Below are positions 2,935-33,339 of a stretch of 33,697 nt of DNA, piece by piece; position 1 is the stretch's first letter; the number at the start of each line of letters is the position of its first letter. This DNA comes from a virus. Its lineage: Duplodnaviria; Caudoviricetes. Position numbers and translations under genes: made by a program. The notes under the pieces are model-generated. The model did not search any database and had not been told where the DNA came from. It saw only the letters and a program-made list of their open reading frames with translations. The stretch lies in IMG/VR virus record IMGVR_UViG_3300020043_002519, positions 1 to 33,697 of that record; one strand, written 5' to 3'.

Positions 2935-3840
2935 ATGGTATCTTCTAATAAGCCTTATAGGGTTCTTAATCTAAGTTCAAACGATTACGCAAACTATGCG
3001 AATGACAATGCGAGGGCGTTACGTTCGATAGGAGTTGATTGTAAGGACGGTTCTATTAATGCACATCCGTTTGGGTACAAAACGCAGGGAGTCATAACGA
3101 CAGCGGCTCAAATCATGATGAACTATAATAAGTACGATTGCGTACAGATATTCCATACTGATATGAATCTGTACAATCTAGTTAAAGACCATCCAAATAT
3201 TGTAGTGTACCATACGGGAACGAGATTTAGGCAACAATCAGAACACTATGCAAATGCTTTTCCAAATGCGAAGATAGCAACCGATCAATGCGAGTTTCTA
3301 TTGCAGTATCCGGATATGTACTACATAGCACCACATACGGAATTGAAACCCGTAACGAAACAAACAAGCGGTAAGTTAATCATTGGACATTATCCTAGCA
3401 ACCCTGATGTAAAAGGAACGAAGCAAATAGAGGCGATGTTAGCACCTTTTCACAATGATTTTGATATACGAATCGACACGAAGAAATTAACGCATGAAGA
3501 GAATTTAAAACGGGTAGGAGAGTGTGATATTTATATCGAACTGTATGCACCAACTCAGAACGGTAAACCATACGGATGTTTCGGGACGTCTGCATTTGAA
3601 GCTACGGCATTGGGGGCGGTAACGATAACGAATAATATCAACCGCAAAGCATACGAGGACGTATACGGACGCCAACCGTTCTTAACACCACATACCGAAA
3701 GAGAATTTCAGAATACTATATTTGGACTAGCAGACCGAGATGGATACGACATTGTGAAGGAAGCAATGCACGCAGGTTTCTACGAAAAGCATAGCATTAC
3801 AGAAACGGGTAGAAGAATTAAAAGATTGATAGAGAGATGA
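2935..3840 (+). CDS. GT-B fold (GT4-like) glycosyltransferase
   Basis: IIGHYPSNPDVKGT, CDIYIEL and FGTSAFEATALG resemble the C-terminal GT-B nucleotide-sugar-binding domain. Confidence 0.7.
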   Translation: MVSSNKPYRVLNLSSNDYANYANDNARALRSIGVDCKDGSINAHPFGYKTQGVITTAAQIMMNYNKYDCVQIFHTDMNLYNLVKDHPNIVVYHTGTRFRQQSEHYANAFPNAKIATDQCEFLLQYPDMYYIAPHTELKPVTKQTSGKLIIGHYPSNPDVKGTKQIEAMLAPFHNDFDIRIDTKKLTHEENLKRVGECDIYIELYAPTQNGKPYGCFGTSAFEATALGAVTITNNINRKAYEDVYGRQPFLTPHTEREFQNTIFGLADRDGYDIVKEAMHAGFYEKHSITETGRRIKRLIER

Positions 3841-4367
3841 AAGCAAACCTAAAAGACTGGATTGAAGCAACCGCAAACCTAAACAAGCGAAGACAATTTT
3901 ATGGACATACGAATGACAACGTACATACAACGTCCACAATTAGCACGTATAAAAACCATATTGAAAAGTGTGGTTATGGTAAGTCAGTTCTTGACGTGGG
4001 TTGTGGTTCGCAGTCGTTACGATACCAATTACCCGAAGGAGTTAAGTACTACGGGCTAGATGCGTTCCCAATTGTACCCGATACGATTGAATGTGCTATT
4101 GAAGATATGACAGACTTAACAGTAGATACTTGCTTTGCATTTGCAGTATTAGATAATTCTAGGGATTTCTTTGAGGCTTGTGAGTCAATGAAACGAATAG
4201 CACAGCGAAACATAGGTATATTGACGGGTATTGATATAGATGTGGATGAATACCATACGTTTAAATTACAACTATCAGACTTCGATATAGCTTTTGAGGG
4301 TTGGAAATGTACACATAGAGAAAAATTACAGCCTAAAGTTTGGCTATTAAACTACGAAAAGCAATGA
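3837..4367 (+). CDS. Class I SAM-dependent methyltransferase
   Basis: Motif I VLDVGCG, then YYGLD; ATGA overlap with the upstream gene. Confidence 0.8.
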   Translation: MKANLKDWIEATANLNKRRQFYGHTNDNVHTTSTISTYKNHIEKCGYGKSVLDVGCGSQSLRYQLPEGVKYYGLDAFPIVPDTIECAIEDMTDLTVDTCFAFAVLDNSRDFFEACESMKRIAQRNIGILTGIDIDVDEYHTFKLQLSDFDIAFEGWKCTHREKLQPKVWLLNYEKQ

Positions 4368-4975
4368 GTTTTCCAAAGGTTACGATAATAATACCGTTCC
4401 ATCATGATCGTGGGTGGTTAAATGAGGCTATTAATTCAGTAAAACAACAGAACTATCCAGGAGAAATAGAACTGATACTATCCGAATCTCCTAACTCGGT
4501 AGGTTACAACATCAATCGAGGGGTTGAAATGGCTACGGGTAAGTATGTCAAGTACCTATGCGACGACGATAAGTTAACGTTTAACTGCATTTGGGATTCT
4601 GTACGTTCTATTGATGGGTTTGATTTCATTCACGGCAACGCAATTAACAAATGGTCAGGACGTGAAGAGTTCCAAAGACCAACTAAAGCTAAGCCAACAC
4701 TTGAGAATATGTTAACAAACAACGTTATCCACGGTGGTACACTTATGTACTCAAAGGAACTGTTCAACAAGGTGGGGCTGTTCGATGAGTCGCTAGATTG
4801 TGCTGAGGAATACGAGTTTAATATGCGATGTTTACAGAAAGGAATGAAGCTAGGGTATTGCAATAGTACGCTATACATTTACAGACGCCACGATGAACAA
4901 AAGAGTTTAGGTAAGCAAGCGAACCAAGCGATACGAAAAGAAAAGATTGAAGCAATTAAAAATAGATTTAGATGA
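4364..4975 (+). CDS. Glycosyltransferase family 2 (GT-A)
   Basis: PKVTIIIP, INRGVEMATGKYVKYLCDDD (DxD), VGLFDESL..EEYEF, YRRH; ATG at 4364 overlaps the upstream stop. Confidence 0.9.
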   Translation: MSFPKVTIIIPFHHDRGWLNEAINSVKQQNYPGEIELILSESPNSVGYNINRGVEMATGKYVKYLCDDDKLTFNCIWDSVRSIDGFDFIHGNAINKWSGREEFQRPTKAKPTLENMLTNNVIHGGTLMYSKELFNKVGLFDESLDCAEEYEFNMRCLQKGMKLGYCNSTLYIYRRHDEQKSLGKQANQAIRKEKIEAIKNRFR

Positions 4976-27750: not shown

Positions 27751-28788
27751 ATGAAGAACAAAGTAAAAGATCAAACGATTACAGAAAACTACGCACTATA
27801 CAACAGCGATTGTATGCTAGTATTACCAACTTTAGGAGACGAAAGTATAGACCTATCTGTTTATAGTCCACCGTTCGCAGGGTTGTACAATTACTCTAGT
27901 TCTGAATTAGACTTTTCAAATTGCGAAAGTAAAGAACAGTTTTTAGAGCAATACGAATTTTTAATTAAAGAGATTGCAAGGGTAACAAAACCAGGACGTA
28001 TAAGCGCGGTGCATTGTACGGATGTATTCGATAACACTTGCCGTCTTTGGGACTTTCCTAACGAGATCATTCGATTACATACTAAGTACGGTTTTGAATA
28101 TCGCAACCGTATTACAATTTGGAAAGAGCCTTTGAAAGTTCGTATGCGTACAATGGTACAATCGTTAATGCATAAATTCATTGTAGAAGATTCGACAAAG
28201 TGTTTTACAGCGATGCCTGACTATGTTTTAGTATTTACTAAAAAAGGCGAAAACAAAGTACCCGTAACTCATCCTTTTGGGATTAATCACTACGCAGGAG
28301 AAACACCAATTTTACCAAACATATTAAGAGCGTGGAACAATGCAAATAATACAGACTTTAACTCTGAGCAACTCTGGGAACATTTAAATATTATCAATGA
28401 GGACGATAAAATAACTAAATTGAATCACTACATTTGGCAGCGTTATGCCTCTTCTGTTTGGGACGATATAAGAATTGACAATGTTTTACCGTTCAAAGAT
28501 TCAAAGGAAGAGGACGACGAGAAACACGTACACCCGTTGCAATTAGATGTAATTGATCGTATTGTTGAATTATACTCTAATCCTGGCGAAGTTGTTTTAA
28601 CTCCATTTATGGGTGTAGGTAGCGAAGTATTTAGCCCCGTTTCAATGGGTCGTAAAGCGATTGGAATTGAATTAAAAGATAGCTATTATAAACAAGCTAT
28701 TTTGAATTGTCAAGATGCTGTAAAACGTTTCAAAGCGAAGGTAAAACAAATCAGTATTTTAGATCAAATCGAAGAAACTGAAATGTAA
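27751..28788 (+). CDS. Amino DNA methyltransferase (N4C/N6A, beta-type order)
   Basis: Catalytic SPPF precedes SAM-binding TPFMGVGS; KHVHPLQLDVI. Confidence 0.88.
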   Translation: MKNKVKDQTITENYALYNSDCMLVLPTLGDESIDLSVYSPPFAGLYNYSSSELDFSNCESKEQFLEQYEFLIKEIARVTKPGRISAVHCTDVFDNTCRLWDFPNEIIRLHTKYGFEYRNRITIWKEPLKVRMRTMVQSLMHKFIVEDSTKCFTAMPDYVLVFTKKGENKVPVTHPFGINHYAGETPILPNILRAWNNANNTDFNSEQLWEHLNIINEDDKITKLNHYIWQRYASSVWDDIRIDNVLPFKDSKEEDDEKHVHPLQLDVIDRIVELYSNPGEVVLTPFMGVGSEVFSPVSMGRKAIGIELKDSYYKQAILNCQDAVKRFKAKVKQISILDQIEETEM

Positions 28789-29108
28789 TGAAAATACATC
28801 TACAAATCAAACCCTTGTCAGTCAATGAAGCCTGGCAGGGGCGTAGATTCAAAACCGATAAATACACCGCTTACGAAAAGTTAATGCGTTCAATGCTTCC
28901 TAAATGCGAAATAAAGGACTTTACACAGCTAAAAATAACGTAGGGCTTTTCAAACATGGCAAGCGACATCGACAACCCAACTAAATTGGTGCTAGATATA
29001 CTACAAAAACAGTACGGTGTGAATGATCGCGACATAGTGCATTTAGTTTTGCACAAAAAAAAGGTTGCGAAAGGTAAAGAATTTATTGAAATTTGGTTTT
29101 ACGATTGA
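28788..29108 (+). pseudogene. rusA: RusA-like Holliday junction resolvase with one in-frame TAG (28941-28943)
   Basis: KPLSVNEAWQG...KIT*GFSNMASDIDNPTKLVLDILQKQYGVNDRDI; DIDN..K..D and ND motifs; TAATG-coupled start. Confidence 0.75.
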
Positions 29109-29117
29109 AATATTTTG

Positions 29118-29125
29118 TATATTAG
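29118..29125 (+). promoter_or_regulatory. -7 promoter element variant (TATATTAG)
   Basis: Immediately upstream of the structured leader. Confidence 0.5.
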
Positions 29126-29130
29126 CAGAC

Positions 29131-29214
29131 GAATCGTGCAGGATTCTGATAGGTAAAAACATTCAAACCCTTTGGGAAAGTAGGACTGCACTCCGAAATT
29201 CCAAAGGGTTTTTT
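29131..29214 (+). ncRNA. Structured leader RNA with kissing loops, loop-E motif and U tract
   Basis: Two hairpins with complementary loops GTGCAG/CTGCAC; AGTA/GAA internal loop; 13-bp basal stem followed by T6. Confidence 0.65.
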
Positions 29215-29228
29215 ATTTAAAATTTATT

Positions 29229-29459
29229 ATGAAAAAAAGAATTATTATCGTGAACTTGAAAGAGTTTTTTCACTTTGGTATTGATAAACCGTTTTCAATA
29301 CTTGCCGAATTAGAGAAGATTGTTTATGATTCAGAATCTTACACCGAAACTATTCAAATTGAATATAGAGGTTGTGTGTTTGACTTTGTATTTCAAGAGG
29401 CACGTATAGAAAAAAATGGGCTTGTAATAGTCAAATATTTGATTAGTAATATATTTTAA
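29229..29459 (+). CDS. Hypothetical protein (AT-rich)
   Basis: 76-aa ORF between the leader RNA and the replication initiator. Confidence 0.55.
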   Translation: MKKRIIIVNLKEFFHFGIDKPFSILAELEKIVYDSESYTETIQIEYRGCVFDFVFQEARIEKNGLVIVKYLISNIF

Positions 29460-29470
29460 ATATAAAGTAT

Positions 29471-30184
29471 ATGAGTATCGGATATATAAAACTTCATCGT
29501 TCATTAATTGAATGGCAGTACTGGGACGATCATAATACAACAAGGCTTTTAATTTACTTTTTAGTATCTGTTAATTATGAATCGAAAAGATGGAAAGGAA
29601 TTGATATAAATTGCGGTTCTATGGTAACGTCTTTTGATAAAATATCAATAGCAACGGGGCTTTCAGTTAAGCAAGTTAGGCGTTCAATTAAAATTTTAAT
29701 TGATTGCAAGGAAGTAACACAAGTAACGACAAACAAATTTCAGCTTATAACCCTAGTTAAATGGGCAGAATTGCAAGTTGAAGAAAATAAAAGGGCAACC
29801 AAAGGACAAACAAAAGACAATCAAAGGGAAGGTCAAAGGGCAACAACTAAAGAAGTTAAAGAAGAAAAGAATAATATACAGATTGAAAACTTCTTAAATT
29901 GGTTCAATGAATCAATAGAAAAAAAGACGGGAAAAAAAGGAAAGTTTAAAATTCTATCAAAGACGGATGAAAGCAACTTTAAAAAAATAAGGGCTTCATA
30001 TGAGTTTCAAGATTTTGTAATAGCTTTCAATAGCTTTTGGGTTAATCAATGGGCAATTGAAACAAACAACAGAACACCGTCACACTTCCTTAGAGTTGAT
30101 AACTTTAATAAATACTTGAATCAAATTAGCGGTTCGAATACAGCCCCACGTTTAACAATGATAACAATTGCAGACCATGATTAA
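29471..30184 (+). CDS. Phage replication initiator
   Basis: GYIKLHRSLIEW N-terminus with wHTH, repetitive linker, C-terminal TPSHFLR..NFNKYLN; precedes the helicase. Confidence 0.8.
   Translation: MSIGYIKLHRSLIEWQYWDDHNTTRLLIYFLVSVNYESKRWKGIDINCGSMVTSFDKISIATGLSVKQVRRSIKILIDCKEVTQVTTNKFQLITLVKWAELQVEENKRATKGQTKDNQREGQRATTKEVKEEKNNIQIENFLNWFNESIEKKTGKKGKFKILSKTDESNFKKIRASYEFQDFVIAFNSFWVNQWAIETNNRTPSHFLRVDNFNKYLNQISGSNTAPRLTMITIADHD
29790..29844 (+). repeat. Iteron-like repeats (putative replication origin)
   Basis: Five imperfect 10-12-nt units starting AAAG (AAAGGGCAAC twice) inside the initiator gene, followed by an A-rich tract. Confidence 0.55.
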
Positions 30185-31199
30185 GAAGTTATCAGAAGTT
30201 AGAAACGAACTAGATCACTTGCATAAAGTTGGAATAGAACAAGGTAAGGATGTTGGATGGAGTTGGGAACAATTCCCGTACACCGTTAAACTCGGATCGA
30301 CTACATACATAGCAGGCGCACCCGCATCCGGTAAATCAGAGTTTTGGTTTGAGATTCTTATAAACCTTTCTTGTTTGCATGGATGGAAGCACGTAATTTA
30401 CAGCCCTGAAACGGGTTCGCACGTGGATATTTACAGCGAGTTAATGCACAAATTCATTGGTAAGCCTTACGTTAAAGGTAATTGGATGATGAACGAAGTT
30501 GAAAAATTGACTGCCGAACGGTTTATTGAAAAGCATTTCTTCGTATTTGATGACCAAAGCGAAATGACTGCAAAGAATTTCTATGAGTTTATAGATGAGT
30601 TTGAAAAGCAACATAACATAACTATCCAAACCACAACAGCCGACCCATGGAACGAATTAAAATCGGACTTTAAACCCGAAGATTTAGGGCGTGAAGATAT
30701 GTTTTTAAGTAGGGTATTAGGGGACGTTCGTAAACACGCGAAGAAAACCAATAAGCATCATTGCATAATTACACACGTTCGAGATCAAAGACTAGAGAAA
30801 AGCCCCGAAGGAACGTACTACTATCCAATTCCAACGGCTAGAGATTTGGCAGGTGGTCAAACGTGGTTTAGAAAAGGAATGAGTATGATAATGTTTTGGC
30901 GTCCACCTAAAGGATTTGAAGTTGAACCAGGAGTTATTGCAGAAGATAATGAGGTTCACGTTAAGATTGTAAAGACCAAACCAAAAGGAACAAGTAAGAA
31001 CGGTACTTATAAATTCTTTCTTAATATTTCAGCATACCGTTACTACATGAAGGATTTTGTAGGCAAAGAGATTTATTCAGATCGTGGTGCATACGACACC
31101 AAACCTAGCAACAACTTTCAAACGGGCGTAGCGTTCAAACCATTACCGATGAATACAGAATTTGATATAACACCTTTAACCGATGAAACACCATTTTAA
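30177..31199 (+). CDS. SF4 (DnaB/T7 gp4-like) replicative helicase
   Basis: Walker A GAPASGKS, YSPE, ADPWN, ITHVR, DLAGG and KIVKTK. Confidence 0.8.
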   Translation: MIKKLSEVRNELDHLHKVGIEQGKDVGWSWEQFPYTVKLGSTTYIAGAPASGKSEFWFEILINLSCLHGWKHVIYSPETGSHVDIYSELMHKFIGKPYVKGNWMMNEVEKLTAERFIEKHFFVFDDQSEMTAKNFYEFIDEFEKQHNITIQTTTADPWNELKSDFKPEDLGREDMFLSRVLGDVRKHAKKTNKHHCIITHVRDQRLEKSPEGTYYYPIPTARDLAGGQTWFRKGMSMIMFWRPPKGFEVEPGVIAEDNEVHVKIVKTKPKGTSKNGTYKFFLNISAYRYYMKDFVGKEIYSDRGAYDTKPSNNFQTGVAFKPLPMNTEFDITPLTDETPF

Positions 31200-32570: not shown

Positions 32571-32878
32571 GAATAATTAACTACGACGAAACGGATAGAA
32601 TAGCGGATTGCTCAATGCAACGCGGTTCGAGAGTGTACGATGTTCAGATAGTGAACATCGAGTATTGCACAGTGTACGATGCGATTACAGAAGAAAGCGA
32701 TATTGACTTAACCGAGTTTACCGCTACCGAATACGACAACGAAAGCGATACGTTTATACCGCTTACACTTACCAATGATGAGATATACCAATTCAAACGT
32801 GGACTACTTGAATACATCGACTTCGAAGATGAAAGCGAGATGTTCGATAGTGGAGATCGTGAGGGGAGTTGTTGGTGA
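32567..32878 (+). CDS. Acidic hypothetical protein
   Basis: ATGA-coupled; very Asp/Glu-rich. Confidence 0.65.
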   Translation: MRIINYDETDRIADCSMQRGSRVYDVQIVNIEYCTVYDAITEESDIDLTEFTATEYDNESDTFIPLTLTNDEIYQFKRGLLEYIDFEDESEMFDSGDREGSCW

Positions 32879-32948
32879 TAACGTTTTGCAACTATACGCA
32901 CCTTGGATATGTACGTTTTTGCGTATAGATGCTGTTAGGTGTAGTATT
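32871..32948 (+). repeat. attC-like palindromic site 1
   Basis: TAAC (32879) .. GCAACTATACGCA / TGCGTATAGATGC .. GTTAGGT (32934). Confidence 0.65.
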
Positions 32949-33330
32949 TTTTAACAATGTAAATTTATAATTATGACAATATTTGAACAAATAAGAAATA
33001 GTAGAAAGTCAACTGACGGGTTTTTATATCAAGTTTCAAAAGAAGATTATAATCAAATAAGAGATGATTATAACTATGATGAACAAAGAGTACCTATTCA
33101 TCCAATGCACCAATTTTATATTGATAATTATGGTAAACAATTTCATTATGAGAAATATATCGAATGTATTTTAAATTACCAACTTAAAGAAGATTATGAA
33201 TATAAAGTAATTATTAACGACCAATTTAAAGACCCAACTATTATAAAGGTTTTCATTGTCGTTCGGGTGTGTTCGTAATATTGCACCTAACAGTCGTGCA
33301 GGCGATGGCTTTAGTCTCGCTTGTGCTTTG
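32935..33330 (+). mobile_element. Integron-like gene cassette
   Basis: Starts at G|TTAGGT, carries a single ORF, then ACCTAAC-hairpin-G|TT; the ends are complementary. Confidence 0.55.
32973..33278 (+). CDS. Cassette-borne hypothetical protein
   Basis: 101 aa; visibly more AT-rich than the flanking genes. Confidence 0.65.
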   Translation: MTIFEQIRNSRKSTDGFLYQVSKEDYNQIRDDYNYDEQRVPIHPMHQFYIDNYGKQFHYEKYIECILNYQLKEDYEYKVIINDQFKDPTIIKVFIVVRVCS

Positions 33331-33339
33331 TTAACCGAC
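33277..33339 (+). repeat. attC-like palindromic site 2
   Basis: ACCTAAC (33285) .. GTGCAGGCGA / TCGCTTGTGC (with G-T pairs) .. GTTAACC (33330). Confidence 0.55.

Follow-up and report, generated by a model that had tools for sequence, protein, structure and literature searches.

The window analysed here, meaning the whole stretch of DNA, is a linear virus record of 33,697 bases (estimated completeness 98%) with terminase, portal, endolysin, methyltransferase, initiator and helicase genes, all on the + strand. Several of its intergenic regions are headed by TAnnTTTG-type boxes, and since TAnnTTTG is the −7 box of sigma-A promoters in Bacteroidota (PMC9723704, PMC6847099), the host of this phage is probably a member of the Bacteroidota.

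A 120-base gap between a rusA-like gene and a run of genes formed by ORF76, a replication initiator and a helicase is occupied by a leader of about 85 nt (Table 1), which follows a family-wide plan consisting of a TAnnTTTG-type promoter, a hairpin (P1, with loop L1), an A-rich linker and a long terminator hairpin (P2, with loop L2). At the offset of the window's promoter box, relatives have TATATTTG or TATCTTTG; the Bacteroidota box spans −12 to −5 (PMC9723704), and transcription would start near 29130. No other TAnnTT(T/A)G box is present on the + strand between 29126 and 32234, and the minus strand from 28324 to 31106 has no antisense promoter of this type.

Table 1. Features of the leader and of the genes on either side of it
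Feature	Position	Strand	Basis
rusA-like resolvase gene, 5' boundary of the element	28788..29108	+	both halves match phrog_11573; second half matches Pfam RusA
Sigma-A −7 box variant TATATTAG (consensus TAnnTTTG, Bacteroidota)	29118..29125	+	sequence
Hairpin P1, GAATC-GTGCAG-GATTC (loop L1, GUGCAG, 29136-29141)	29131..29146	+	sequence, RNAfold, covariation
A-rich linker with AAAACAUU-like motif	29147..29164	+	sequence
Hairpin P2, predicted intrinsic terminator	29165..29214	+	sequence, RNAfold, covariation
P2 outer stem, 13 pairs, one G-U	29165-29177 with 29199-29211	+	
P2 internal loop, AAGUA / GAAA	29178-29182 / 29195-29198	+	
P2 apical part, GGA-CTGCAC-TCC, 3-bp stem (loop L2, CUGCAC, 29186-29191)	29183-29194	+	
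P2 U-tract	29209-29214	+	
ORF76, 76 aa, family not recognised, exchangeable slot behind the leader	29229..29459	+	Pfam/PHROG scans, homologs, contigs
Replication initiator / DnaD-like helicase loader	29471..30184	+	phrog_2514, E 5.8e-17
Replicative helicase (primase/helicase family)	30168..31199	+	phrog_5482 (unknown function), E 1.5e-42; phrog_239 (primase/helicase), E 3.2e-15

Both hairpins are predicted by RNAfold (−27.3 kcal/mol, z = −3.26; 1 of 200 shuffles as good), and the composite pattern of the leader has a single match in the window and none in 100 shuffles. P2 was missed by a simple terminator scan because the scan has a loop limit of 3–8 bases. The AAGUA/GAAA internal loop of P2 has the sequence signature of, and is presumably, a loop-E-like (sarcin-ricin) motif, for which AGUA faces GAA between two helices and non-canonical pairs form. 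A preliminary description of this DNA had located the box, P1, the P2 stem with its internal loop and apex, and the T run, and every one of these positions was confirmed in the sequence. It had also placed the element at the head of the replication operon; the leader does precede that operon, but ORF76 comes first and the initiator only after it.

The rusA-like gene is split by an in-frame TAG (28941-28943), where related contigs in three of four runs have a Tyr codon (TAC or TAT), which makes the TAG either a nonsense mutation confined to this record or an error in the sequence; recoding of TAG was considered and dropped, as the relatives read Tyr and other genes of the window end in TAG. For ORF76, Pfam and PHROG scans gave no family and an Atlas search gave no match. 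It has seven homologs besides itself, and in one related contig 226 other bases replace it between leader and initiator. A role for ORF76 as a dedicated regulator was therefore rejected, since it belongs to no family and its slot is exchanged among relatives.

Elsewhere in the window, two intergenic imperfect palindromes bounded by TAAC ... GTT (32877-32940 and 33285-33336) flank a small ORF (32973-33278); they resemble integron attC sites, and the GTGCAG inside the second is probably there by chance. A AAACCAAA motif recurs at five intergenic places in the early region (24592, 26310, 32367, 33372 and 33383), usually shortly 5' of a start codon, with three copies within a few bases of a TAnnTTTG box. 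Three ORFs between the terminase and the structural genes (2935-4975) look glycosyl-/methyltransferase-like by eye; a family scan of the first of them, the only one of the trio scanned, gave no match.

Covariation of the loop pairing among relatives

Relatives of the leader were collected by three routes. With only the P2 apex and the T-run fixed, a pattern search matched 53 viral loci, 52 of which have the exact complement of the P2 loop upstream, in three variants. In an alignment of 30 rows (29 distinct relatives and the window; locus L150, in which the structure is absent, was omitted) 93.4% of the cells are paired, with a covariation score of 0.701 against 0.192 after shuffling. A second, loop-blind pattern fixed the linker, AGTA, CGAA and the T-run and neither of the loops; it matched at least 119 loci in the 39 of 64 parts of the collection that were scanned. 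The P2 fold is present in 42 of these loci, representing 28 distinct sequences and nine loop sequences (hereafter codes), and all 42 have a six-of-six loop complement upstream. Such a complement was found at 5 of 77 unfolded loci and in none of 650 swaps between loci with different codes. The complementarity of L1 and L2, noted in the preliminary description, is thus not a matter of chance.

In the corresponding alignment (A5), 94.5% of the cells are paired and covariation reaches 0.761, against 0.237 for shuffled and at most 0.178 for slid controls. Compensatory changes occur in four of the six kissing pairs, with one row out of register at L1, and covariation extends to the stems, where 4 of 4 counted pairs of P1 and 11 of 11 in the outer stem of P2 covary. 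Kinship among the sequences inflates these counts, but nine codes still require several independent paired changes. Stem mismatches comprise 56 G-U against 12 A-C, which indicates that the + strand is the folded RNA. The GCA/UGC core of the code is well kept in leaders of the window's type, as is loop E. Loop positions 3–5 are less variable than the stems, so nothing points to diversifying selection acting on the code.

The third route went through the initiator protein and reached 80 loci, 52 of which have the promoter, a long terminator hairpin and an upstream loop match of at least 6 nt; of the other 28, five offer less than 300 bases of upstream sequence, and a variant promoter caused at least one (L244) to be missed. 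Because relatives share codes, 138 of 812 swapped pairs in this set also match over at least 6 nt, and the loop-blind swaps between different codes are the cleaner control. The signature of AGUA opposite GAA, found in the window, is carried by 7 of 29 initiator-anchored leaders, which were selected neither for it nor for the AAAACAUU-like linker motif that is also present among them. Counted up to the G-C part of P2, the linker is mostly 18–21 nt long (mean 19.5 in 47 distinct leaders). A loose first pattern had matched 120 viral loci, none with the leader architecture. Ahead of a related initiator, one locus (L187:1118-1275) has a longer two-hairpin leader with a loop match of only 4–6 nt, possibly a third subtype. 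Covariation of the loop pairing in relatives had been proposed beforehand as the test of the structure; it was found and the pairing was not refuted, and these comparisons support a conserved, covarying loop–loop pairing in an RNA that heads a replication operon and has no Rfam family.

Subtypes, carriers and a third copy of the code

The family falls into a subtype A, which includes the window and has loops of 6–7 nt and the AGUA/GAA internal loop, and a subtype B, which has an L1 of 13–14 nt, a match of 7–10 bp and no loop E. Loop E is therefore specific to subtype A, subtype B mostly having a UGAA/GGA internal loop in its place, and both subtypes share the kiss and the terminator. A linker motif that is AAAACAUU(AUU)- or AAGGUAUUAUU-like is kept in both subtypes, though the search did not select for it.

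First genes behind 28 subtype-A leaders include initiator-like genes (DUF6291, DnaD-like), NUMOD4-HNH nucleases, a methyltransferase and small ORFs; no protein family is common to all leaders, and no metabolic theme is evident among the downstream genes. At six loci (L129, L131, L133, L136, L143 and L386:1780-1989) proteins of 67–79 aa that look alike by eye are encoded, often directly behind the leader, one of them matching Pfam PF24448 weakly, below the cut-off. Subtype B is represented in two cultured phages: in Cellulophaga phage phi18:3 the leader lies ahead of gp007 and its DnaD-like loader, and in Tenacibaculum phage Gundel_1, where it was read by eye and has a weak U-tract, ahead of an annotated anti-repressor. 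Searches of cultured phages by blastn returned short chance matches only for the window element and no match for a subtype-A relative. A tyrosine integrase is encoded by 1 of 27 carriers (phi18:3) and by 0 of 21 records that are at least 90% complete. Classical prophage immunity is thus not the setting in which the leader usually occurs.

In the host genomes that were searched, no subtype-A leader came to light. A pattern search of genome contigs yielded noise, in which model R1 matched 0 of 100 loci and gave one weak match (E 0.21) in the remaining 20; the same model had no match in sets of 5 and 151 Bacteroidota genomes, where 29–150 candidates were scored per genome out of hundreds to thousands. 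The loop-blind pattern matched in 9 of 401 Flavobacteriaceae genomes, which does not exceed the reversed control, and none of the matches was structured by eye.

The leader behaves as a module. Contigs in three of four runs carry the leader of the window with few changes; pieces covering the leader alone differ at 1 in 121 and 4 in 144 bases, and the flanking rusA pieces are about 87–90% alike. In run X1, contigs diverge from the window at the end of rusA or just past the promoter and, as far as loose ends of 30 bases tell, look like they continue into other leader alleles. Three relatives of the helicase (80% identity) have other codes at the same position. The window and each of 19 near-complete relatives carry one leader; a second one, differing in code, is present in two genomes, as counted with a whole-genome descriptor that also gave six unstructured 6-nt background hits and missed Gundel_1. 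These second kissing leaders (L414 in G173 and L397 in G159) both lie on the minus strand, and the one in G173 heads a gene whose start resembles NUMOD4-HNH nucleases.

In 25 of 47 distinct subtype-A leaders, which have 11 codes among them, a further copy of L1 follows the terminator. This third site tracks the loops across six codes, and ends 4–5 nt 5' of the ATG in 22 of the 25; the T-run starts 11–13 nt away from it in 20 leaders and only 7 nt away in three. Non-cognate codes were found in 5 of 470 trials, four inside an ORF and one in a leader (L237:1010-1125) whose loops have one code and whose start-codon site has another; it is likely a natural recombinant, and its mixed code makes it a useful test case. 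The third site is absent from the window and, among the 47 distinct leaders, from all with a code ending in GCAU. Since it copies L1, L2 has two possible partners, and a copy of the code at the start codon points to competition among these partners; in Flavobacterium, base pairing close to the start codon reduces translation (PMC6847099). The three copies of one hexamer around a promoter also resemble direct, inverted and direct copies of an operator, and the hexamers could accordingly be DNA sites for a phage repressor, or a chance match. This is very improbable, as the sites are always found in the loops of hairpins whose stems covary, G-U mismatches outnumber A-C ones, and the swap control rules out chance.

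A possible mode of action

Comparison across the family shows that the promoter-like box, P1, the linker and P2 with its U-tract are kept, while L1 and L2 change together, joined by the third site in about half of the leaders with loop E. This leader is very probably regulatory in some form and is likely an RNA switch that sets the amount of replication initiator. A more specific reading, to which we give about an even chance, is that it acts as an attenuator of the initiator-helicase operon in which the kiss between L1 and L2 favours read-through and terminated copies repress in trans.

Folding of the growing transcript, modelled with nested folds only, forms P1 first, pairs L1 with L2 at 72–84 nt and forms P2 from 88 nt. 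P1 would thus fold first, and L2, which emerges some 20 nt ahead of closure of the P2 outer stem, could kiss L1. With helix dimensions of about 2.8 Å per pair and 6 Å per base, rough geometry suggests that a 19-nt linker can span the finished, kissed P2, yet is too short to wrap once round the stem. As long as RNA polymerase holds the 3' end, a further helical turn inside the kissed ring would be hindered, and because the linker cannot wrap the stem under these conditions the kiss is taken to mean read-through (ON), a direction suggested by this geometry and by analogy with the guanidine-IV riboswitch, for which it was measured. Were P2 to close first, the outcome would be a free RNA of about 85 nt that presents L2 at the tip of a stiff stem. 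By pairing with L1 of newly made transcripts this RNA could force their termination, and by pairing with the start-codon copy, where there is one, it could block translation. The kiss would keep L2 off the start-codon site, so that both sites act with the same sign, and the feedback would scale with genome number and be specific to phages that share the same code.

The searches revealed neither an antisense promoter nor a remote sRNA nor a protein shared by all leaders, which would leave the terminated leader itself as the simplest effector, by analogy with the CI RNA of phage P4. A separate trans-acting sRNA, or remote targets, had been considered and was dropped, as cognate matches are not enriched over non-cognate codes in 20 genomes: once leader and antisense-of-leader rows were excluded by eye, 11 loop hits (0.55 per genome against 0.51 for non-cognate codes) and four start-codon hits (0.2 against 0.13) lie outside the leaders. 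The finished RNA may also kiss itself through the 19-nt linker, which would mask L2 and weaken any action in trans.

An explanation in cis is available for each of the three covarying sites, and the covariation data fit equally well an attenuator that works within one transcript, with the kiss competing against terminator closure and against pairing of L2 with the start-codon site. Polymerase speed, Mg2+ or a protein of the phage or its host, bound to loop E or to the linker, would set the balance. Differences in code would then be neutral compensatory drift combined with cassette exchange. The stronger conservation of the code core than of the stems and the chance level of remote targets agree with this cis reading. 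The usual distance of the third site from the T-run is a plausible reach in cis, but the 7 nt seen in three leaders is short for spanning a stem of about 18 bp, and no protein family follows all leaders, their genes ranging from initiators and HNH nucleases to methyltransferases and small ORFs. We regard this version as unlikely, though a serious contender.

The strong terminator-like stem with its U-tract, and a conserved linker length that may permit the kiss in the finished RNA, would also suit a constitutively terminated small RNA whose kiss is a stable fold or an aid to termination, the operon being served by leak-through or another promoter. This leaves unexplained both the code-tracking third copy at the start codon and the fixed position ahead of initiators, and no second TAnnTT(T/A)G box lies on the + strand in the interval searched downstream; we consider it improbable.

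Comparison with known RNA systems

As the preliminary description had stated, the element belongs to no named Rfam family: against Rfam 15 the window gives 0 hits at the gathering threshold, and 16 related loci give 0 hits at E ≤ 1. The best weak match of the window, FuFi-1 (RF02986; 18.4 bits, E 0.1), covers the linker and terminator stem, but the 5' multistem of FuFi-1 is unmatched and the score lies far below the gathering score of 59.6. The family was not described in the literature searched, although the alignment supplement of PMC10690425, with 8,495 IMG/VR candidates, may hold parts of it; neither 'Bacteroid' nor 'kissing' occurs in the main text of PMC5737381.

In the guanidine-IV (mepA) riboswitch, the loop of a 5' hairpin kisses the loop of the terminator hairpin, an interaction that impedes terminator completion and favours read-through (PMC11611296). 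The phage leader has the same kissing of a 5' hairpin with a terminator hairpin, and its loop pairing covaries; however, guanidine-IV is not among its three Rfam hits up to E 10, its code varies (11 codes), many leaders have the third copy at the start codon, and the genes behind it are replication, HNH and antirepressor genes and not guanidine exporters. The shared architecture, together with the well-kept loop E and GCA/UGC core of subtype A, would be expected of a metabolite- or ion-sensing riboswitch whose ligand stabilises the kiss, as the preliminary description had suggested in part. That option is weakened because the code varies within subtype A and the sister subtype has other loops and drops loop E altogether; downstream genes have no metabolic theme in common and the Rfam hits up to E 10 include no riboswitch family, so that a ligand-sensing role is quite improbable.

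The CI RNA of phage P4 pairs with seqA upstream and seqC downstream, with premature termination of replication-gene transcription as the outcome (PMC4825925). CI and the C4 RNAs of P1/P7 resemble part of the leader family in having a short pairing sequence with complementary sites on both sides, in the same leader and ahead of replication genes; upstream and downstream target sites of the P4 type are present in 25 of 47 relatives, and the window has the upstream site only. In Gundel_1 the leader stands ahead of an annotated anti-repressor, an arrangement like that of the P1 c4-ant operon. The phage leader differs in being far shorter, in having the terminator tip as its effector loop, in showing no evident processing step and in its carriers, which mostly have no tyrosine integrase; the C4 families of Rfam match neither the leader nor the 16 related loci. 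In the repZ system of IncI-alpha plasmids and the attenuators of pT181 and pIP501, too, a replication initiator is under the control of RNAs that pair through a type-specific code. Compared with these antisense and pseudoknot rep leaders, the phage leader has no leader peptide, both partner loops lie on one strand, and no minus-strand TAnnTT(T/A)G promoter accompanies it in the interval given above.

We tentatively propose, with somewhat less confidence than the attenuator reading itself, a minimal, protein-free replication-control and exclusion system of mostly non-integrating Bacteroidota phages, in which an 85-nt RNA would be attenuator, terminator and its own trans repressor at once, using a code of 6–9 nt at up to three sites that defines orthogonal incompatibility groups and is swapped as a cassette. 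Control or timing of the replication initiator in small, integrase-less Bacteroidota phages was not found in the literature searched, and the leader offers a concrete control point, with phi18:3 and Gundel_1 as cultured carriers. If it acts in cis only, it would still be an uncatalogued family of kissing-loop attenuators with a well-supported pseudoknot. If the trans step is true, it would provide natural orthogonal RNA switches for a phylum without Shine-Dalgarno control, and would be a compact equivalent, built from RNA alone, of the immunity systems of P4 and P1. Failing the sequence tests for both systems, the leader combines a guanidine-IV-like architecture with a logic like that of P4 CI and P1 C4.
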